Source: Bacteroidia bacterium
GTDB taxonomy: Bacteria > Bacteroidota > Bacteroidia > CAIKAF01
Length of the DNA: 64,000 nucleotides
Assembly (NCBI GenBank): GCA_016742095.1
Contig: JACVCJ010000014.1
Span: forward strand, 17,777-81,776
Direction of reading: 5' to 3'
The notes under the pieces were generated by a model. It saw only the letters and a program-made list of their open reading frames with translations, made no database searches and was not told the DNA's origin. The translations under genes were made by a program, and so were the position numbers. This document shows, in pieces, positions 28,167-60,857 of this stretch. Positions within the stretch are counted from its first letter, which is position 1. Each line of letters opens with the position of its first letter.

Positions 28167-29810
28167 ATGAGAGTATTCTTTTTTATATTTTTCTCTATCG
28201 CCTTCGGTCTGCAGGCCCTGGCCCAGCAGGTATCGAACGTGACCGAAGTACGGAACGGCAAAAAATACTATGTGCACACTGTACAGAAAGGAGAGACCGT
28301 GTACGGCCTTACCCGCCTGTACAAAACTACGGAAGAGGCTGTTTATAAAGAGAATCCCGGTTCCCGCCAGGGCATAAAGGCCGGCGAGAAGCTGTACATC
28401 CTGTTCCCGGGTCAGCCGGAAAACAACAACAATACCCGGCTGCCGGTAGATCCGCCGCAGAAAAGTGTAAAACATACCGTACAGAAAGGGGAGACGCTCT
28501 ACGGCATCGGCAAACGCTACGGGGTTAGCGTAGACGCGCTGGTTGCGGCCAATCCGCAGGTAGAAAGCGGCCTGAAAGTGGGCGAGGTGCTTACCATCCC
28601 GGGCAGTTCACAGATCGTACTGAAAGAAGATACGCCGCCCGAAAAGGACGAAGAGCCGGAGACGCCCGTGGTGATACAGACCCCGGTGAAAGATGCCGGC
28701 AGCACCCGTATGCTGACCCGTGCGGAATGCGCCGCTTCGCCCGCCCGTAAAGACGAATACAACATTGCCGTGCTGCTGCCCCTGGGCATGGAAGCCGGTC
28801 CGCAGAACAAACAGGCGCGCATCGCTTTCCAGTTCTATGCAGGGATACGCCTGGCCATACAGAAATACGAGCCGCAGAAAGCCCGCATCAACTGGCGCTT
28901 TTTCTCCACCGGTTCCAAAATGGACGAGGCCTCGGTAAATGCCATCATTCAGAAACCCGATTTCCGCAAGTCAGACCTGATCATCGGCCCCCTCTACACC
29001 TCGGAAATGGGCCCGGTGCTCGAATATGCCGCACAGAACAAAACCCCGCTTATCAGTCCTTTTTCCCGCGGGAACGATATCCTGGAGAACAATCCCTATG
29101 TACTGAAGGCTTCACTTTCCGAAGAGACCTATACCTCGGCCGTGGCGCGTTTCCTGAACACCCGCTACAAAGCCGGCAAGGTGATCCTGCTGAATACCGG
29201 CCTCAAAAAAGACTCGGTGTTCTACCAGATGCTGCGCGATACCCTGGTGCTGAAATACCGCTTCGACAGCGTAAGCGCCAACCGCAACCTGGTGTACCTG
29301 CCCAAGGGCGGTAACGTGGCGGCTTTCGTGAAAAAAGGCGTGCCCAATATCTGTGTATATCCTACCAATAAAGAAATTACGGTCAATTCCTTCTTCTCCG
29401 GCATCAATAAAATAGGCAAAACGAACGACTTTGCCGTGCTGGGCGAGGAGTCCTGGTTCGGTTTCCGCAATTTCGACGTGGAGCATTTCAATAACTGCCG
29501 TATTCACATTCCGGTGATATATAAGACCTTCGACTGGGATTCCACGCATGCGTCCTTTATCCGGAACTTTAAAGAAGAATACAGCAGCGAACCGGAGTTT
29601 TACGCTTTTAGGGCCTACGAAACGGCCTGCCTGGCCATCGACCTGCTGGAACAGTACGGAAATGCCGCTGTGCCCTGTGTACAGTACGACGAGCGCAAGT
29701 ACCTGGTTACGCCTTTCCGCTGGCGTAAGCTGCCCAACGGCGGATTCGAAAATACGGGTATGGGCATGATGATCCTCGAAGACTATGAAATACGCTACGA
29801 GGCGTATTAA
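28167..29810 (+). CDS. LysM-domain protein with a periplasmic-binding-protein (type I) like C-terminal domain
   Basis: A signal peptide is followed by two LysM repeats (HTVQKGETVYGLTRLYKTTEEAV.., HTVQKGETLYGIGKRYGVSVDALVAANP..), a Pro/Glu linker and a ~350-aa PBP-like domain. Confidence 0.7.
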   Translation: MRVFFFIFFSIAFGLQALAQQVSNVTEVRNGKKYYVHTVQKGETVYGLTRLYKTTEEAVYKENPGSRQGIKAGEKLYILFPGQPENNNNTRLPVDPPQKSVKHTVQKGETLYGIGKRYGVSVDALVAANPQVESGLKVGEVLTIPGSSQIVLKEDTPPEKDEEPETPVVIQTPVKDAGSTRMLTRAECAASPARKDEYNIAVLLPLGMEAGPQNKQARIAFQFYAGIRLAIQKYEPQKARINWRFFSTGSKMDEASVNAIIQKPDFRKSDLIIGPLYTSEMGPVLEYAAQNKTPLISPFSRGNDILENNPYVLKASLSEETYTSAVARFLNTRYKAGKVILLNTGLKKDSVFYQMLRDTLVLKYRFDSVSANRNLVYLPKGGNVAAFVKKGVPNICVYPTNKEITVNSFFSGINKIGKTNDFAVLGEESWFGFRNFDVEHFNNCRIHIPVIYKTFDWDSTHASFIRNFKEEYSSEPEFYAFRAYETACLAIDLLEQYGNAAVPCVQYDERKYLVTPFRWRKLPNGGFENTGMGMMILEDYEIRYEAY

Positions 29811-53242: not shown

Positions 53243-53788
53243 CTAATTTAAATGAGGCATATCCGTAAAATTGCTCCAGATGGCGTATTCCTTGTCTTTG
53301 CGCAGCATTTTTTTCCAGTGCTGTTCGTAGCCTTCGGTATGCAGTACCTCGTTGGCGCTGGTGGTACCGGCCACCCAGGATTTATTGGCAAATTCGGCAG
53401 ACAGCTGATCGGGGTCCCAGCCCGAATAGCCGGCAAAGAACTTCACCTTATCGGGTTGGGCTTCCTTATTGTTGAGCAGTTCCTTCAGTACATCAAATTC
53501 GCCGCCCCAGTAAAGTCCGGGCAGTATTTCCACGCTGTTGGGCAGCAGATCGCCCAGGCTGTGTACATAGAACAGGTTTTCATTGCCTACCGGTCCGCCG
53601 TAATAGATACTGGCTTCAAACAGCACGTCCTTGATCAGCTCGTGCAGTTTCAGGTCGGTTTCGCGGTTGATGATAAACCCGAAGGAACCTTTATCGTTGT
53701 GTTCGGTAAGCAGTACCACGGCCTGCCTGAAGTAGGGATCATCCAAAAAAGGTGTGGCCGATATGATGTTTCCTTTCGCAATTTCCAT
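53243..53788 (-). CDS. YqgE/AlgH-family protein (UPF0301)
   Basis: It is taken as the C-terminal 181 codons of the long antisense ORF 53243..56140, starting at the ATG at 53788: MEIAKGNIISATPFLDDPYFRQAVVLLTEHNDKGSFGFIINR.. matches the AlgH family. The upstream 780 codons are rejected as antisense to the MORN-repeat gene. Confidence 0.8.
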   Translation of the reverse strand: MEIAKGNIISATPFLDDPYFRQAVVLLTEHNDKGSFGFIINRETDLKLHELIKDVLFEASIYYGGPVGNENLFYVHSLGDLLPNSVEILPGLYWGGEFDVLKELLNNKEAQPDKVKFFAGYSGWDPDQLSAEFANKSWVAGTTSANEVLHTEGYEQHWKKMLRKDKEYAIWSNFTDMPHLN

Positions 53789-53890
53789 AAATTCGCAATT
53801 TTTAACAGGGTCGCTATACAATTTTAACGATTTTGCCCGTACAAGCTTATGTGTATGCACAGAAAATTTGAACTTTTTTTCCGCAATAGT

Positions 53891-56239
53891 ATGAAACGCC
53901 TTATCCTGTTCCTTTTTACCATCATCAGCCTCTCTGTATCTGCCCAGAACGTGCAGCAGTTTTACGACTCGGGCCGCCTCCGTGCCGAAGGACCGCTTAC
54001 GGCCAACGAACGCACGGGTTTCTGGCGCGAGTTCTACGAAGAAGGCCCCCTGCGCGAGGCCGGCAATTATGAGGCCGGCAAAAAAACGGGCCTCTGGAAA
54101 GAATATTACAAAAACGGCATCCTGAAAAGCGAGATCGACCACAGCAAGGGCCTGGTGAAGATCTACAGTGAAAAAAACACGATAGAGACCATCGGTAAGC
54201 TCAAAAACGGTAAACCCGAAGGCCGCTGGACCGAGTATTACGATAACGGAAACATCCGTGAGAAAAAAAGCTACAAGGCCGGCGTACTGAACGGTACCGT
54301 GATCTCTTACCACAAGAACGGCGCCAAACAGAGCCAGTACAGCCTTAAGAACGGTCTTAAACAGGGCAGCTGGAAAATGTGGTACGAAACCGGCATGCCC
54401 ATGAACACCGGAACCTTCAAAGACAATAAAAAAACGGGGGAATGGGTGTCTTACTACCAGGACGGCAGCATTCTTACCTACGAGAATTACAGCACCGGCT
54501 ATTATACCTATTACCATGCCAACGGCGCCCTGCGCAGCGAAGGCGAAATGGATGCCGAAGGTAATAAGAACGGCAAGTTCAGCGAATTTTACCCCAACAG
54601 CCGCAAAAAAGCGACCGGCAATTATACCGATGGTGTGGAGACCGGCAAGTGGCAGACCTTCCACGAAAACGGCAAAAAGCATAAGGTGTATGAGAATGAT
54701 GAAAGCGGCAAACCCATCGACGATTACTACGAGTACGGCGAAGACGGTAAACTGCTGGAAGAACGGCATTATACCCGTACCGGAACACCCACCGGCACCT
54801 GGAAAAGCTGGTGGCCCGAAGGTGGCAAACCCCGCAGCATACACAATACCGGCAGCGGCGAAAAACAGACCTTCTGGCCCGATGGCACTCCGCAGAGCAC
54901 CGGTAACGAGCTCAACGGACAGAAACAGGGGCTCTGGATCACCTACACCCCGGAACAGAACGTGGCCGAGCGCGGAAGTTTTGTAAATAATGAAAAAGAC
55001 GGCAAATGGGAAACTTTTTACAAAGACGGCACGCCCGAAATGCAGATCGAATTCAACAAAGGCCTGCGCACCGGCACCTGGAAGAAATACTACGAGACCG
55101 GAGCGCTGCACAGCATCGAGAAATACGACAATGGCAAACCTGCCGGCAGCTGGGAATACTGGTACGAATCCGGTAAAAAACGCAGTATCGTAAATAACAA
55201 CAACGACAGTACCTGGGTCTGGTATGAAGACGGGGCCCTGAAGCTGAAAGGCAAACGCCGCGAAGGTAAAAAAGAAGGCAACTGGACCAGTTACCACCCC
55301 AACGGAAAGGTGCTGGAGATCGCCGCCTACAGGAACGATAAGCCGGACGGCACCTGGAAGACCTTTTACCAGGACGGTACGCCCGAAGGTATCTACGAAT
55401 ACCGCGATTCGCTGAGGAACGGCTTCTGGCAGTGGTTCTTCCCCTCCGGGGAGCCGGACATGAGCGGCCATTTTGAGAACGATAAACGTAACGGTCTCTG
55501 GACGCAGTACTATCCCGGCAAAATAAAACAGTTCGAAGGCAATTACAAAGACGATCTGAAGGACGGGGAGTGGACCTACTGGGACAGCACCGGCACGCTC
55601 TGGAAAAAGGGAAATTTCCTTGCGGACCTGAAACACGGTCCCTGGGAATACTGGTACGAGAACGGACAGACGGAACACAAGGGGAATTTTGTATCCGGCC
55701 GTGAAGACGGATACTTTGTATCGTATTACCCTACGGGGCAGATCGAAGACGAAGGTCATTTTTCCAACGGACTGATGCAGGGCGAATGGCGCGGATTCTT
55801 TGAGACCGGCAAACTGCGTTATGTGGCGTCCTATGCCAACGGACTGCAGAACGGCGTGTGGAAACACTGGTACGATAACGGCAAGCCCCGCGACATCATC
55901 ACCTACAAGAACGGCGTTATGGACGGTTCCTATACCACTTTTTACGAAAGCGGCTCCATACAGGAACTGGGCGAATACCGCAACGGCGCCAAATACGGCC
56001 GCTGGGAGAGCTTTTTCGGGCACGGGCCCACCGCAGGGGTCTTCAATATGAAGAACAATGTATACGACGGGGAGTTCATACGCTATTATCCCAATAAGGT
56101 GCCCCAGGTGAAAGGCAGCTACAAAATGGGCCTCAAGCACGGTAGCTGGACCTTCTATTCCAAAGACGGCAAGGAACTGAAGACCATTACCTACAACAAC
56201 GGCGAAGAGCTGCGTGTAAAAGGCAGGGGACCTTATTAG
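53891..56239 (+). CDS. secreted MORN-repeat (YwqK-like) protein, ~30 tandem repeats
   Basis: A signal peptide (MKRLILFLFTIISLSVSAQ) is followed by tandem ~23-aa repeats of the form G.W..YY.NG.L..EG.Y.(N/D)G.K.G.W (for example GLWKEYYKNGILKSE, GRWTEYYDNGNIREK, GTWKKYYETGALHSIE). Track ORF 53849..56239 is trimmed to the ATG at 53891. Confidence 0.75.
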   Translation: MKRLILFLFTIISLSVSAQNVQQFYDSGRLRAEGPLTANERTGFWREFYEEGPLREAGNYEAGKKTGLWKEYYKNGILKSEIDHSKGLVKIYSEKNTIETIGKLKNGKPEGRWTEYYDNGNIREKKSYKAGVLNGTVISYHKNGAKQSQYSLKNGLKQGSWKMWYETGMPMNTGTFKDNKKTGEWVSYYQDGSILTYENYSTGYYTYYHANGALRSEGEMDAEGNKNGKFSEFYPNSRKKATGNYTDGVETGKWQTFHENGKKHKVYENDESGKPIDDYYEYGEDGKLLEERHYTRTGTPTGTWKSWWPEGGKPRSIHNTGSGEKQTFWPDGTPQSTGNELNGQKQGLWITYTPEQNVAERGSFVNNEKDGKWETFYKDGTPEMQIEFNKGLRTGTWKKYYETGALHSIEKYDNGKPAGSWEYWYESGKKRSIVNNNNDSTWVWYEDGALKLKGKRREGKKEGNWTSYHPNGKVLEIAAYRNDKPDGTWKTFYQDGTPEGIYEYRDSLRNGFWQWFFPSGEPDMSGHFENDKRNGLWTQYYPGKIKQFEGNYKDDLKDGEWTYWDSTGTLWKKGNFLADLKHGPWEYWYENGQTEHKGNFVSGREDGYFVSYYPTGQIEDEGHFSNGLMQGEWRGFFETGKLRYVASYANGLQNGVWKHWYDNGKPRDIITYKNGVMDGSYTTFYESGSIQELGEYRNGAKYGRWESFFGHGPTAGVFNMKNNVYDGEFIRYYPNKVPQVKGSYKMGLKHGSWTFYSKDGKELKTITYNNGEELRVKGRGPY

Positions 56240-56282
56240 TTTTAGTTATATCTAAAAATATTTTTGGTTTGCCTAAAAACTA

Positions 56283-56290
56283 TACCTTTG
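56283..56290 (+). promoter_or_regulatory. TAnnTTTG motif (TAccTTTG) only 4 nt upstream of the znuA-like ATG
   Basis: It is read directly. If functional it would produce a near-leaderless transcript. Confidence 0.3.
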
Positions 56291-56294
56291 TGGT

Positions 56295-57209
56295 ATGAAG
56301 TGCGGGCGCGTTTTAACTTTTTTACTGCTTCTGACATGCCTGGCATGCAGGCCTGAGAAACGTGTACACGAGCGTTTACAGGTGGTTTGTACCACTTCGG
56401 TGATCGCCGAACCCCTTTCTGAAATTTTCGGTACCCATGCCGATGTGCGTGCCCTGATGCGTAACGGGGTGGACCCGCATTCCTACAAAGCCGGTATCCG
56501 CGACCTGGACGTACTCTCGGATGCGGATGTGGTGGTGTACAACGGTCTGCACCTCGAAGGTAAAATGGCCGAAGTGCTGGAAAGCTACGGCCGCGAAAAA
56601 CCCGTGCTGGCCATGAGTGACGGAACGGACAGGAAACACTTTCTGCAGGCAGAAGAGAACCCGGGAACCTATGATCCGCATTTCTGGTTCGATATGCAAT
56701 TGTGGAAGAACGGACTGCGTTACGTAACGCAGAACATCTGCCGCAAACAGGCCCTGGCCGATTCACAGGCCGTGTACCGGGGCATGGCGCGTTATTTTCA
56801 GCGGCTCGACAGTACCGACCGCGTGCTGCGTTCCCTGCTGGATGCCGTGCCGCAGGACCGCCGTGTGATCGTGACCAACCACGATGCCTTCCGCTATTTC
56901 GGACGTGCCTACGGCTGGGAGGTACGTGGTCTGCAGGGTATTTCCACCGTGGCTGAACCCGGCCTGAAAGATATGAACGAACTGGTCGACTTTGTCTGTG
57001 CCCGCCATATCCCGGCGGTGTTCGTGGAAAGCAACCTGAGCGATAAATCCCTGAGAGCGTTGCGTGCCGGTGCCGCCGCCCGGGGTCACCGGATCGGGCA
57101 GGGGGGCAGTCTGTATGCCGATTCCCCCGGCCCGGAAGGCAGTTACGAAGGCACCTATATCGGCATGTTATACAGTAATGTTAAAACCCTGAACCAGAGT
57201 CTGAAATGA
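56295..57209 (+). CDS. metal (Zn/Mn/Fe) ABC transporter substrate-binding lipoprotein, TroA/ZnuA-like
   Basis: It has a lipoprotein signal (LLLTCLAC) and the cluster A-I solute-binding fold with metal-ligand His in HSYKAGIRD and ..DPHFWFD.. contexts. Confidence 0.8.
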   Translation: MKCGRVLTFLLLLTCLACRPEKRVHERLQVVCTTSVIAEPLSEIFGTHADVRALMRNGVDPHSYKAGIRDLDVLSDADVVVYNGLHLEGKMAEVLESYGREKPVLAMSDGTDRKHFLQAEENPGTYDPHFWFDMQLWKNGLRYVTQNICRKQALADSQAVYRGMARYFQRLDSTDRVLRSLLDAVPQDRRVIVTNHDAFRYFGRAYGWEVRGLQGISTVAEPGLKDMNELVDFVCARHIPAVFVESNLSDKSLRALRAGAAARGHRIGQGGSLYADSPGPEGSYEGTYIGMLYSNVKTLNQSLK

Positions 57210-57967
57210 ACGCGATCGAAGTACAACAGCTCCATGTGAGCTACCAGGATAAACCGGTACTGTGGAATATTCACTTCCAGGTGCCGGCCGGCGTAAACTA
57301 TGCCATTATCGGGCCCAACGGGGCGGGTAAGACCACCCTGCTGAAGGCCCTGCTGGGCGAAGTGAAACCCGCGCTGGGCGCCGTACGTTTCTTCGGGCAT
57401 CCGCTGGACGAGGTGCGCAGCCGCGTGTCGTACGTACCGCAGCGGCAGCTGGTGGACTGGGATTTTCCGGTGAATGTGCTCGATGTGGTGCTGATGGGAC
57501 GCTATGCCTCCCGCGGACTGCTGGCCCGCATACACCGCAGCGACCGCGAACGTGCCATGGAAGCCCTGGCCTCCCTGGGTATGGTAGACCTGGCCTCGCG
57601 GCAGATATCCAAACTGAGCGGCGGACAGCAGCAGCGCGTGTTCATTGCCCGTGCCCTGGCTGCCGATGCCGACCTGTACATTATGGACGAACCTTTTGCC
57701 GGGGTTGATCTGCAAACCGAAAAGATCATCGTGGAGATACTGCACCGGCTGAAAAAAGAGGGCAAGACCACCCTTACGGTGCACCACGACCTTACCACCG
57801 TAAACGAATATTTCGACGGGGTAATTATGATCAACGGGCGCCTGGTGGCCTGCGGGCCCGTGGCCGAAACCTTCCGGCACGACAATCTTTCCGAGACCTT
57901 CGGCGGTAAACTGCCCATCCTGGAAAGCGTTATTCAGCAATCGCACAAGAACCCGGTACAAAAATGA
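57206..57967 (+). CDS. metal ABC transporter ATP-binding protein (ZnuC/YtgB-like)
   Basis: It has Walker A (GPNGAGKTT), signature (LSGGQQQRVFIARAL) and Walker B (LYIMDEPFAGVD) motifs, and overlaps the previous gene by 4 bp. Confidence 0.85.
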   Translation: MNAIEVQQLHVSYQDKPVLWNIHFQVPAGVNYAIIGPNGAGKTTLLKALLGEVKPALGAVRFFGHPLDEVRSRVSYVPQRQLVDWDFPVNVLDVVLMGRYASRGLLARIHRSDRERAMEALASLGMVDLASRQISKLSGGQQQRVFIARALAADADLYIMDEPFAGVDLQTEKIIVEILHRLKKEGKTTLTVHHDLTTVNEYFDGVIMINGRLVACGPVAETFRHDNLSETFGGKLPILESVIQQSHKNPVQK

Positions 57968-59229
57968 TATTTGCCGAAGACTATAATACACTCATCGTAG
58001 CGCTCGGCGCGGTACTGCTCAGTTCGGTATCGGCCGTTACGGGCGTGTTCGCCTACCTGCGCAAAAAGGCGCTCAGCGGCGATGTGGTGGCCCACAGCGT
58101 ATTGCCCGGCATTATACTGGCCTATATGGCCACGGGTATACGAAATCCGTTCGTGTTGTTACTGGGAGCGCTGTTTACGGGCGGACTCAGCATGCGTGTG
58201 TCTGAATGGCTCACGACAAAAGCCCGCCTGAAGGAAGATGCGGCCCTGGCCTTTACCATGTCGGTATTTTTTGCCGCCGGTATCTTCCTGATGCACTTTT
58301 TGCAGACCAGCGGCGCCCTGGCCCAGGCCGGTATACAGGATTTCCTGTTCGGTAAGGCGGCGGCGCTCTCCCTCGAAGATCTGCTCTGGCTGGGCTCGGC
58401 AGCCCTGGTGGTATTGTTGAGCGTAGTCCTGTTCTACAAACCGGTCCTCGTATTTGCCTTTTCCCCTTCTTTTGCGGCTTCGGCCGGTTTACCGGTGCGT
58501 TTTCTTTCCGTACTGCTTTCAGGTGTGCTGGTGTGGAATATTTCCATCAGTCTGCAAACCACGGGCGTGGTCATGTCGGCCGCACTGATGATCACACCGG
58601 CTGCTGCGGCCCGCTTCTGGACGGATTCTCTGAAAAAGATGTTCCTGCTTTCCGCCGTTTTTGGCGCCACGGCCGGACTTGCCGGGGCCGCCGTTTCCTA
58701 CCTGGCCGCCGATATGCCTACCGGTCCCTGGATCGTGGTGGTACTTACGCTGATCGCTTTTACGTCGTTCCTTTTTTCGCCCAAAGGGCGCGTGCGCAAA
58801 TGGTGGCAGGCCTGGTCGCACCGCCGCACCCTGGCTTTAGAGAACGTACTCAAGAACATTTACAAATACCTCGAAAGTGAGGCCGATCCCACTTATTTTA
58901 TGCCCCGGGCTGTTTCCGGTAAATACGGCATTTCCGGCGAAGAGTGGAAAAAAGGCTGGCGGCAGGCCCTGGCCCGTAACCTGGTTGTAAAAGGCAGCAA
59001 CGGGTATTTTTTTACAGAAAAAGGCCGTTCCCTGGCCGCCCGCGTGGTACGCCTGCACCGCCTCTGGGAACTCTATATCCTTAAGTACGCACGCATCCCC
59101 GAAGAATGGGTACATGCCGATGCCGAACATTTTGAACACTTTATCTCCGAAAAGATCGAAAAAGACCTGTTGCAGCTGCTCGATAACCCGGAGACCGATC
59201 CGCACCAAAAACCTATTCCCGGCTTATGA
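57964..59229 (+). CDS. metal ABC transporter permease fused to a C-terminal DtxR/MntR-like metal-dependent repressor domain (YtgC-YtgR-like fusion)
   Basis: Residues 1-~270 form an ABC-3 family permease with 8-9 TM helices. Residues ~280-421 are soluble (..TLALENVLKNIYKYLESE..GWRQALARNLVVKGSNGYFFTEKGRSLAARVVRLHRLWELYILKYARIPEEWVHADAEHFEHFIS..) and resemble the DtxR-type winged-helix plus dimerisation region. Confidence 0.75.
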   Translation: MIFAEDYNTLIVALGAVLLSSVSAVTGVFAYLRKKALSGDVVAHSVLPGIILAYMATGIRNPFVLLLGALFTGGLSMRVSEWLTTKARLKEDAALAFTMSVFFAAGIFLMHFLQTSGALAQAGIQDFLFGKAAALSLEDLLWLGSAALVVLLSVVLFYKPVLVFAFSPSFAASAGLPVRFLSVLLSGVLVWNISISLQTTGVVMSAALMITPAAAARFWTDSLKKMFLLSAVFGATAGLAGAAVSYLAADMPTGPWIVVVLTLIAFTSFLFSPKGRVRKWWQAWSHRRTLALENVLKNIYKYLESEADPTYFMPRAVSGKYGISGEEWKKGWRQALARNLVVKGSNGYFFTEKGRSLAARVVRLHRLWELYILKYARIPEEWVHADAEHFEHFISEKIEKDLLQLLDNPETDPHQKPIPGL

Positions 59230-60116
59230 ACGCATTCTGGATGATATGTACCGGTATACTGGTGGCTGTGTCCTGCAGCTCGCTGGGCAGTTTCCTGATC
59301 TTACAGCGTAAAACCATGCTGGCCGATGCCATTTCGCATGCGGTGCTGCCGGGTATTGCCCTGGCCTACCTGCTTTCGGGCAGCCGTTCGCCCTTTTTTA
59401 TGATGTTCGGAGCCTCAGTTTCAGGCGTGTTCACCGCCTTCCTGGTAGAATGGCTCGAAAAAAAGGCCGGCGTACAGACCGATTCTTCCATCGGGGTTAC
59501 CTATACCTGGCTGTTTGCCGTGGGCATTATTCTTATTTCGGCTTTTGCAGGCCAGACCGACCTGGACCAGGACTGCGTGCTCTTTGGCGAACTGGTGTAT
59601 GTCCCGCTGAACAAAGTAGAATTCGCCGGCTTCCGTATCCCGCTGCAAACCTTGCAGTTAGTGCCGGTTACGGGCCTGGTGTTTGCATTTATATGGCTGT
59701 TCTATCCCGCGCTCAAGGTATATTCCTTCGACCCTTCCTTTGCGCGTATGCGCGGCCTGCGCGGGTTGCTGCTGCATTACCTGTTCATGACGCTGGTATC
59801 GCTTACCACGGTATTTTCTTTCGAGAGTGTAGGGGCCATACTGGTGGTGGCCTTGCTGGTGGTGCCGGCCGTTACGGCGCGCATGCTTACGGGCCGTCTT
59901 TCGCTCCTGCTGCTGTACGCGGCACTTTTTGCCGTGGCCTCGGTGCTGGGCGGATACGCGGCGGCCTATGCGCTCGATAATACGCTTTCGGCCTGCATTG
60001 CCTTATGCAGCGGCCTTTATTTTGCGCTTGTATTTGGCTTAAAGCAGCTTTTTCTTCAGCGCGTTCAGAAAAAACTCTTTACCACCGGCCCCGAAGGCTC
60101 CGAAGTGCGGGTTTAA
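59226..60116 (+). CDS. metal ABC transporter permease (second permease, YtgD/ZnuB-like)
   Basis: An ABC-3 family membrane protein of 296 aa. It overlaps the previous gene by 4 bp. Confidence 0.8.
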   Translation: MNAFWMICTGILVAVSCSSLGSFLILQRKTMLADAISHAVLPGIALAYLLSGSRSPFFMMFGASVSGVFTAFLVEWLEKKAGVQTDSSIGVTYTWLFAVGIILISAFAGQTDLDQDCVLFGELVYVPLNKVEFAGFRIPLQTLQLVPVTGLVFAFIWLFYPALKVYSFDPSFARMRGLRGLLLHYLFMTLVSLTTVFSFESVGAILVVALLVVPAVTARMLTGRLSLLLLYAALFAVASVLGGYAAAYALDNTLSACIALCSGLYFALVFGLKQLFLQRVQKKLFTTGPEGSEVRV

Positions 60117-60857
60117 GGTATTTTCGGCAGAATAGGTAAGGGGCTTGCGGGTCTCGAGGGAGTACAAATCTCCGCCTGAACAGAGCAGCAGTGCATGGCC
60201 CGCGGCCGTATCCCAGATATGGGTATTCCCGAAACGGATGTACAGATCGGCCTTGCCTTCGGAAATAGCGCCGAATTTAAGCGCACTGCCCATTTTTTCT
60301 ACCTGCAGCGGGGCGATCTTCTCTGCATTTTTAAGCCAGCGGTTCTGCATGGCATTGCCTTTGGAATCGAGCGTACCACTCAGCATTACCAGTTCGTGGC
60401 GGGTACTTTCGGGAGAACAGGGCGTTATCTTTTCCGTTTCGAAATGATATTTCCATACCTGTCCGTTCTCGGTATACCAGCAGCAGTTCTTTACGGGGGA
60501 GGCAACCAGTCCGAATACGGGCACCCCTTTGCGGACCAGGGCTATATTCACGGCAAACTGGCCGTTGCGCTTCACAAATTCGCGTGTGCCGTCCAGGGGG
60601 TCCACACACCAGAACAATACGGGCGGCGTGGCCGGCATGTACATCTGTTCTTCGCTGATCACGGGTATGGACGTGGTTTCGAGTACCATGCGTATAACCG
60701 CGTCGGAAGCGGTATCGGCATCGGTAATAGGGCTGGCATCATCTTTTTTGCGTACGGAAAACTCCAGGTGGTAAACCTGCATTATTTCCTGGCAGGCAAG
60801 CTGGGCGGCAAACCGGGCAACAAAGGCGATAAAACGGAAATTTTCTTCTGCTTTCAT
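60039..60857 (-). CDS. cysQ: 3'(2'),5'-bisphosphate nucleotidase / inositol-monophosphatase family (CysQ-like)
   Basis: It has IMPase motifs (..WCVDPLDGTREF.., ..ISEGKADLYIRFG..WDTAAGHALL). The product is 272 aa. Confidence 0.7.
   Translation of the reverse strand: MKAEENFRFIAFVARFAAQLACQEIMQVYHLEFSVRKKDDASPITDADTASDAVIRMVLETTSIPVISEEQMYMPATPPVLFWCVDPLDGTREFVKRNGQFAVNIALVRKGVPVFGLVASPVKNCCWYTENGQVWKYHFETEKITPCSPESTRHELVMLSGTLDSKGNAMQNRWLKNAEKIAPLQVEKMGSALKFGAISEGKADLYIRFGNTHIWDTAAGHALLLCSGGDLYSLETRKPLTYSAENTLNPHFGAFGAGGKEFFLNALKKKLL

Follow-up and report, generated by a model that had tools for sequence, protein, structure and literature searches.

A permease-borne DtxR-like module as a candidate metal sensor in a Bacteroidota Tro/Ytg-type importer

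Introduction

The sole studied example of a metal permease fused to a DtxR-type domain is YtgCR of Chlamydia, whose repressor domain acts as a cleaved DNA-binding protein. The tro operons of Treponema instead rely on TroR, a standalone DtxR-type repressor acting on a dyad operator before troA (PMC2628430). Metal import can also be controlled at the transporter itself: in Escherichia coli, the zinc-sensing domain of ZnuC locks ZnuBC shut, alongside control by Zur (PMC12236471). Here we examine a 64-kb stretch of DNA from a Bacteroidia bacterium (GCA_016742095.1, contig JACVCJ010000014.1, positions 17,777 to 81,776; hereafter the window), in which positions 56295-60116 encode a Tro/Ytg-type ATP-binding cassette (ABC) importer whose first permease carries a DtxR-like module.

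The best overall explanation of this locus, to which we assign a probability of about 0.5, is that the importer is repressed through its operator by an unlinked canonical repressor, and that the fused module would serve as a metal sensor attached to the transporter.

Results

The fused permease carries a complete DtxR-like module with conserved metal sites

The fusion is encoded by gene 3 of the operon and comprises the following parts.

57964..59229, plus strand: gene 3, ABC-3 permease fused to a DtxR-like module, 421 aa (Pfam)
57964..58779, plus strand: permease domain, residues 1-272, nine transmembrane helices, TroC/YtgC/PsaC-like (PF00950; AlphaFold2)
58780..58878, plus strand: basic juxtamembrane segment and DtxR helix 1, residues 273-305 (AlphaFold2, invariant columns)
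58879..59013, plus strand: helix-turn-helix (HTH) and wing, residues 306-350, fold kept and sequence poorly conserved (AlphaFold2, pLDDT >80)
59014..59229, plus strand: metal-binding/dimerisation domain, residues 351-421 (PF02742)

Pfam profiles recognize both halves of the protein, with ABC-3 (PF00950) matching residues 12-271 (E 2.4e-54) and Fe_dep_repr_C (PF02742), the metal-binding/dimerisation domain of the DtxR/MntR family, matching residues 351-419 (E 6.4e-22). A single open reading frame (ORF) with an N-terminal ABC-3 domain and a C-terminal DtxR-like module, occupying the first-permease position in an A-B-C-D operon and retaining the metal-coordinating residues of DtxR, has the composition of a YtgCR-type fusion. 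The 120 best database homologs are 421-451 residues long and each contains both domains; one of them, 99% identical, comes from a metagenome-assembled genome (MAG) named ‘Flavobacteriales bacterium’. Because the ORF is continuous and the homologs share its length and domains, the fusion is genuine and not an assembly artefact. A previous reading of the DNA letters, made with no database searches (the sequence-only reading), had proposed such a fusion within one ORF and named a frameshift separating two genes as the finding that would overturn it; that artefact is excluded on the same grounds.

The structure of the fusion was modeled with AlphaFold2 from 27 aligned sequences, with a mean predicted local distance difference test score (pLDDT) of 83. 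In this model, transmembrane helices extend to residue 271 and are followed by one unbroken helix (276-305), helices at 314-321 and 325-337, a two-stranded wing (341-350) and three more helices, with pLDDT values of 82-91 across residues 300-370. Foldseek superposes residues 1-275 on the manganese permease PsaC (7kyp; TM-score normalized to the target, 0.85), and the last ~133 residues on the full two-domain DtxR-family repressors DR2539, IdeR, DtxR and SloR (TM-score ~0.8 over 131-135 columns). Both analyses agree with the sequence-only reading that the C-terminal winged-helix and dimerisation module is complete; the peptide it had quoted, RLHRLWELYILKYARIPEEWVHADAEHFEHFISEKIEK, corresponds to gene 3 residues 363-400.

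PsaC has nine transmembrane helices and was produced as a C-terminal GFP fusion (PMC8346216). Because the C-terminus of this homolog is cytoplasmic, and six Lys/Arg residues lie within residues 274-288 after the last transmembrane helix of the fusion, the fused module is predicted to be cytoplasmic, the location that the sequence-only reading had assumed. The same juxtamembrane region contains a tryptophan-rich stretch, RKWWQAW (58795-58815, residues 278-284), in which one Trp position is semi-conserved among homologs. This stretch recalls the WWW motif for tryptophan sensing in Chlamydia YtgCR, yet there the motif sits in the permease domain.

The metal sites of the module are highly conserved. 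Alignment to IdeR residues 54-135 equates H365, E369, H384, E388, E391 and H392 with IdeR H79, E83, H98, C102, E105 and H106, so that the DtxR/IdeR ligand set looked for in the module is present. Among the 27 homologs, H365, E369, H384, E391, H392, N294, K297, E304 and D412-P-H414 are invariant and E388 is nearly so. N294 occupies the position of DtxR Met10 and lies on helix 276-305. The replacement of Cys102 by Glu is a pattern of manganese-sensing DtxR-family members.

The DNA-reading surface has diverged under purifying selection

The HTH is conserved very differently from the rest of the protein. Compared with 26 homologs, the window's fusion shows 51% identity in the permease, 55% in the metal/dimerisation domain and 17% in the HTH. 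HTH identity is also 16-18% to the clade members P0003 and P0006, and the P0003 locus has identical operator half-sites. The profile PF01325 is not detected in the window's fusion even at E<=10, and among the 27 fusion homologs it yields sub-threshold matches alone, in 2 of the 27. The N-domain of the DtxR/MntR family, comprising a PF01325 match and a conserved recognition helix, is consequently not recognizable here, though the winged-helix fold is present. Where the family recognition helix begins with Pro-Ala-Ser, that of the window begins with Gly-Glu-Glu. A hidden Markov model of the canonical N-domain scores the window's HTH at 4.4 bits, against a mean of 11.5 for fused and ~111 for standalone proteins, and the window's HTH is the least canonical of those scored.

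This divergence does not reflect neutral decay, which is excluded by the ratio of nonsynonymous to synonymous substitution rates (dN/dS): in comparison with the fusion at the related locus L081 (86% identical), dN/dS is 0.12 for the HTH and 0.08 for the flanking domains. The purifying selection acting on the HTH indicates that the fused module is functional. A vestigial appendage, or one serving structure but not regulation, would accord with the fast divergence of the HTH sequence across lineages. Such an appendage is nevertheless very improbable, given metal ligands that are invariant in at least 27 diverse homologs, dN/dS values of 0.08-0.12 over the module, and retention of the module in hundreds of species.

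The fusion is widespread in Bacteroidota

A scan of one genome per species finds the fusion architecture in at least 588 species genomes, of which the best 80 relatives (L001-L080) were inspected. All 80 belong to Bacteroidota and include the cultured genera Ekhidna, Pontibacter, Chryseobacterium, Roseivirga and Fulvivirga, and the order binding protein-ATPase-fusion-permease is kept in related loci. Orthologous permease-repressor fusions are recorded in 11 phyla in the passage of a review that cites Thompson et al. 2012 (PMC5599777). Given this passage and the at least 588 species genomes, the architecture was already known and the window adds one more member; the view that it is special to Chlamydia does not hold. 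A literature search for Bacteroidota permease-DtxR fusions found no paper on them.

The conserved operator tracks a standalone regulator

The operon is preceded by a 55-nt spacer containing the following elements.

56240..56257, no strand assigned: primary operator, palindrome TTTTAGTTATATCTAAAA, predicted DtxR/MntR-box type, core TTAG-N6-CTAA at 56242-55
56261..56278, no strand assigned: second, weaker operator-like site TTTTTGGTTTGCCTAAAA, one mismatch to TTTAG-N6-CTAAA, 21 nt from the first
56283..56290, plus strand: putative Bacteroidota-type -7 box TACCTTTG (TAnnTTTG), 4 nt before the ATG, invariant in the clade

The palindrome lies in the region, near 56240-56295, where a DtxR-box-like sequence had been anticipated. 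The exact TTTAG-N6-CTAAA has a single occurrence in the window, which is the spacer site. In the 80 related loci (697 kb), TTAG-N6-CTAA is found 87 times versus 17 expected, nearly always at the 5′ end of the operon. Strong and weak sites in tandem likewise occur in L003, L005, L019 and L054. The weaker site forms inverted repeat I1 and overlaps a putative -33 element (TTTG, 56263-56266). In an alignment of the clade spanning 86% to 58% protein identity, the operator half-sites, the CCTAAAAA element, which is the 3′ half-site of the weaker site, and the TACCTTTG box are invariant. One other one-mismatch version of TTTAG-N6-CTAAA, TTTAGGGCCTACGAAA, is present in the window at 29607-29622 with a G+C-rich spacer; the count of such matches is within chance.

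A canonical standalone regulator of the DtxR/MntR type accompanies most of these importers. Of the 80 loci, 65 have its gene no more than 4 kb away, and in 58 of those 65 it immediately precedes the binding-protein gene in the same orientation. The standalone regulator is a three-domain protein of ~220 aa, a representative of which matches PF01325 (E 9e-16), PF02742 and FeoA. The gene lies ~1.5-2.3 kb into the loci (for example, L001:1598-2260 and L009:1551-2228) and frequently shares 4 nt with the binding-protein gene. In operons that open with it, the operator is found upstream of the regulator gene and not of the binding-protein gene.

Fused and standalone proteins were compared by mean column entropy in the 58 genomes holding both. 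The metal/dimerisation regions are about equally conserved (0.86 bits fused, 0.75 bits standalone), whereas the HTH regions differ, at 2.43 bits in the fused versus 1.52 bits in the standalone proteins. In the standalone proteins, P-A-S-V-T-D-M is the almost universal recognition-helix sequence. In lineages with a GTTAG..CTAAC operator, the standalone helix reads MPTVNSM or TPTANNM, and in those with TTTAG..CTAAA it reads PASVTDM; the fused HTH shows no partition by operator variant. Because the standalone helix variant tracks the operator variant and the fused HTH does not, the comparison links the operator to the standalone regulator, which it matches and covaries with, rather than to the fused module.

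The GTTAG-N6-CTAAC variant is seen in Chryseobacterium and in some Saprospiraceae/Flavobacteriales (L047:7744-7800, L065:7727-7783, L052:2200 and 6194, L069:1505). Chryseobacterium has its regulator gene downstream and in the opposite orientation, preceded by two operator sites. In ten loci, nine from Pontibacter and one from an uncultured Cytophagales MAG (L041), the operator lies more than 1 kb (1.06-1.3 kb) 5′ of the regulator gene (L013, L015, L021, L039, L041, L043, L045, L053, L073 and L077). A FabH-like C-terminus (..AAFGSGFTWASALIRW) closes the sequence between operator and regulator in four of those from Pontibacter (L039, L043, L045 and L053), so at least one extra gene may share the operator there.

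These comparisons bear on the proposal of the sequence-only reading that the fused domain is a released repressor of its own operon. Under this scheme, as in Chlamydia, the module would be proteolytically released, bind metal, dimerise and repress the operon through TTTAG-N6-CTAAA. The position of the fusion and the gene order equal those of ytgABCD, the module is a complete two-domain DtxR fold with intact ligands, and a DtxR-type operator lies directly upstream. Its HTH is positively charged and under purifying selection, and no other DtxR-family gene is found in the window or within ±10 kb in three clade relatives. There is also experimental precedent in Chlamydia (PMC5599777, PMC6504234, PMC7755916). 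However, lineages share the operator but not the fused recognition helix (Gly-Glu-Glu in the window versus the family's Pro-Ala-Ser), and the operator variant follows the helix of the standalone regulator. With a canonical repressor in the same operon of most relatives, a second repressor reading that operator would be redundant. Apart from P273/G275, which lie at the membrane boundary, the homologs show no shared cleavage motif or internal start; an internal translation start yielding a free module is excluded, as the linker has no conserved Met or start codon. If the module acted as a repressor in the window's clade, one would expect an HTH closer to the canonical form or better conserved there, and neither is the case; a fused HTH that is more canonical where no standalone gene is linked is excluded by the profile scores (4.4 bits for the window versus a fused mean of 11.5). 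The comparative data, comprising the canonical standalone gene in 65 of 80 loci, the operator covariation, the HTH identity of ~17% and the lack of a PF01325 match, thus do not back a released repressor, which we consider possible but doubtful.

The similarity between fused and standalone proteins permits another arrangement, in which the fused module heterodimerises with the standalone repressor and tethers or titrates it at the membrane, such that repression follows the abundance or state of the transporter. The motifs HRLWE, HxxAExxEH and DPH..IP are common to the dimerisation/metal domains of both proteins and equally conserved, both genes share one operon in most relatives, and each transporter has a single module with no homodimer partner. 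In the window's clade, however, the partner gene is not linked, and capture of this kind seems unlikely.

Full-length permease could also bind the operator of its own, co-translationally inserted operon while remaining uncleaved in the membrane, in the manner of ToxR or CadC. According to a review, repression in E. coli was obtained with full-length YtgC, and anchoring in the membrane need not prevent a repressor from working (PMC5599777); the fused HTH is, in addition, positively charged. The mismatch between HTH and operator applies here as it does to a cleaved repressor, and a dimer on DNA would need two modules from two transporters, making tethered binding highly improbable.

The operon encodes a cluster A-I importer

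The other three genes of the operon are listed below; together with gene 3 they constitute four ORFs on the plus strand.

56295..57209, plus strand: gene 1, TroA/YtgA-like cluster A-I substrate-binding protein, 304 aa (ZnuA/PF01297, E 6.5e-62)
57206..57967, plus strand: gene 2, ABC ATPase, 253 aa (ABC_tran PF00005, E 3e-31)
59226..60116, plus strand: gene 4, second ABC-3 permease, TroD/YtgD-like, 296 aa, without a regulatory extension (PF00950, E 3e-51)

All three gene junctions are ATGA start/stop overlaps. The ORFs and these junctions agree with the order binding protein-ATPase-fused permease-second permease and the 4-bp overlaps described in the sequence-only reading. Encoding a ZnuA/TroA-fold binding protein together with an ATPase and ABC-3 permeases, the operon is, as judged from its sequence, a TroABCD/YtgABCD-type (cluster A-I) Mn/Fe/Zn ABC importer, carried by an uncultured, Flavobacteriales-like member of Bacteroidota.

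The gene 1 product has a signal or lipoprotein-like leader at its N-terminus, and its best solved relative is T. pallidum TroA (1toa; E 5e-65). Four motifs are kept in the alignment with TroA (DPH, DPH, NHDAF and YAD), which we take to be the His/His/His/Asp metal-ligand positions of TroA. The ATPase contains Walker A (GPNGAGKT), signature (LSGGQQQR) and Walker B (LYIMDEP) motifs, and its top NCBIfam matches are manganese/iron ABC ATP-binding proteins, under the equivalog cut-offs. Its translation shows no C-terminal CxxxHxCC zinc-sensing domain and no other extra domain. The position of gene 4 is kept in related loci.

The TACCTTTG element is a putative -7 promoter box, a consensus that we presume from what is generally known of Bacteroidetes promoters. 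A box of this type also precedes the start codon in many related loci. With the box 4 nt from the ATG, the leader would be very short or missing. A sigma-70 scan of the spacer, which does not cover Bacteroidota promoters, gave no site.

Several features flank the operon. A 796-aa MORN_2-repeat protein (PF07661, E 1.7e-68; 53849-56239, plus strand) ends 55 nt 5′ of the operon, a position kept in the clade. A 965-aa ORF on the minus strand (53243-56140) is mostly a shadow of this gene, and its 3′ end alone corresponds to a DUF179 gene annotated in L081. At the other end, the 3′ end of the second permease gene has a 78-nt convergent overlap (60039-60116) with an inositol-monophosphatase/CysQ-like gene on the minus strand (60039-60857); a convergent overlap of similar length (78-90 nt) is annotated in L081 and L083.

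Discussion

The comparisons above are best accommodated by two layers of control over metal import. Transcription would start at a Bacteroidota-type promoter in the 55-nt spacer, and at high metal one or two dimers of a DtxR/MntR-family protein would occupy the tandem TTTAG-N6-CTAAA operator (56240-56278) and shut it off. The repressor would be a canonical standalone protein of the TroR/MntR type, whose gene opens the operon in most relatives and is unlinked in a minority that includes the window's clade. We have high confidence that this Tro/Ytg-type importer is repressed at high metal through the tandem operator. That the operator's reader is a canonical TroR/MntR-type repressor whose gene lies elsewhere in the genome we hold with moderate confidence, because the gene itself is unobserved.

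The fused module may in turn act mainly as a cytoplasmic metal sensor attached to the transporter and not as a repressor reading the operator. This role is suggested by the retention of both metal sites and by the placement of a ligand position (N294, with E293) on the unbroken extension of the last transmembrane helix. Metal-dependent clamping of helix 1 to the dimerisation domain could pass a signal to the permease, and the output would be rapid trans-inhibition, a post-translational feedback on import that adds to transcriptional repression. For this genome, we infer both the reader of the operator and the output of the fused module.

Several observations weigh against this sensor model and the unlinked repressor paired with it. 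The covariation between operator and standalone helix rests on few lineages that are not phylogenetically independent. No standalone DtxR-type gene is present in the 64-kb window, where the best tblastn match (E 0.025) looks spurious, and none is linked within ±10 kb in the clade loci L081-L085; the proposed reader of the operator is thus unobserved for this genome. The fused HTH carries a charge of +4.2, compared with +2.4 for the standalone HTH, and a winged-helix fold in every homolog combined with positive charge and purifying selection would be expected if the module still binds nucleic acid. Known trans-inhibition domains work as pairs, and here there is one DtxR module per heterodimeric permease pair. 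Finally, the orthologous fused domain of Chlamydia binds the ytg promoter and is cleaved (PMC5599777, PMC6504234, PMC7755916).

A bolder generalization can be offered tentatively, at somewhat less than even odds. The TroC module of Bacteroidota may be a paralogue of the operon's repressor with a degenerate HTH, recruited as a transporter-attached sensor through which metal locks the importer, with no role as a repressor; the Chlamydia paradigm would then not be general.

If the fused module is a sensor, importers of this class would gain a second, post-translational brake made from a repressor fold. Trans-inhibition would then operate in a Mn/Fe-type cluster A-I importer via a permease-borne sensor, and the cleaved-repressor paradigm from Chlamydia would not extend to hundreds of other fusion-bearing species. 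The sensor role can be tested in cultured carriers such as Chryseobacterium, Pontibacter and Ekhidna. No earlier report was found of the pattern seen here, in which a co-resident canonical repressor and an operator tracking it are combined with intact metal sites and a drifting DNA-reading surface in the fused module. This pattern gives reason to doubt that the one studied example explains the whole fusion family.

Comparison with known systems

The closest described system is YtgABCD of C. trachomatis with its YtgC-YtgR fusion (CT069), which shares with the window the gene order, the fusion on the first ABC-3 permease, the DtxR-type ligands and a palindromic operator 5′ of the first gene. No further DtxR-family regulator exists in Chlamydia, whereas most Bacteroidota relatives carry a canonical standalone repressor. 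YtgR of Chlamydia binds DNA and is cleaved to a 28-30 kDa product (PMC5599777, PMC7755916); the window's module is ~17 kDa. In its HTH, the DtxR N-domain signature is missing and sequence conservation has been lost.

The troABCDR operons of T. pallidum and T. denticola share with the window a TroA-like binding protein and two permeases. The TroR arrangement resembles that of most Bacteroidota relatives in having a standalone DtxR-type repressor. In Treponema, however, a separate repressor gene closes the operon and TroC is unfused, whereas in Bacteroidota the standalone gene comes first and TroC carries a DtxR-like module.

The soluble repressors DR2539 of Deinococcus, IdeR in its two-domain form and B. 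subtilis MntR share the fold of the module (TM-score ~0.8 over ~133 residues). The fused module has Glu at the DtxR Cys102 position together with the equivalents of Glu105 and His106. Each of these repressors carries a conserved P-[AS]-S-V-T recognition helix and contacts DNA as an untethered dimer. The fused module, in contrast, is held on the permease, and Asn occupies its Met10/Asp8 position.

PsaBCA of S. pneumoniae shares the transporter class, the nine-helix permease fold and the cytoplasmic C-terminus (PMC8346216). Unlike the fusion in the window, PsaC is a homodimer without a C-terminal regulatory module.

For the proposed role of the module, a close functional analogy is the zinc-sensing domain of E. 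coli ZnuC, a sensor on a transporter that halts import at high cytoplasmic ligand, beside a separate repressor (PMC12236471). Sensors of the ZnuC type form a symmetric pair on the ATPase and have an unrelated fold, whereas in the window a whole DtxR-like module sits on one permease and trans-inhibition is proposed by analogy. The regulatory domains of ModC and MetN are further cytoplasmic sensors built into ABC importers.

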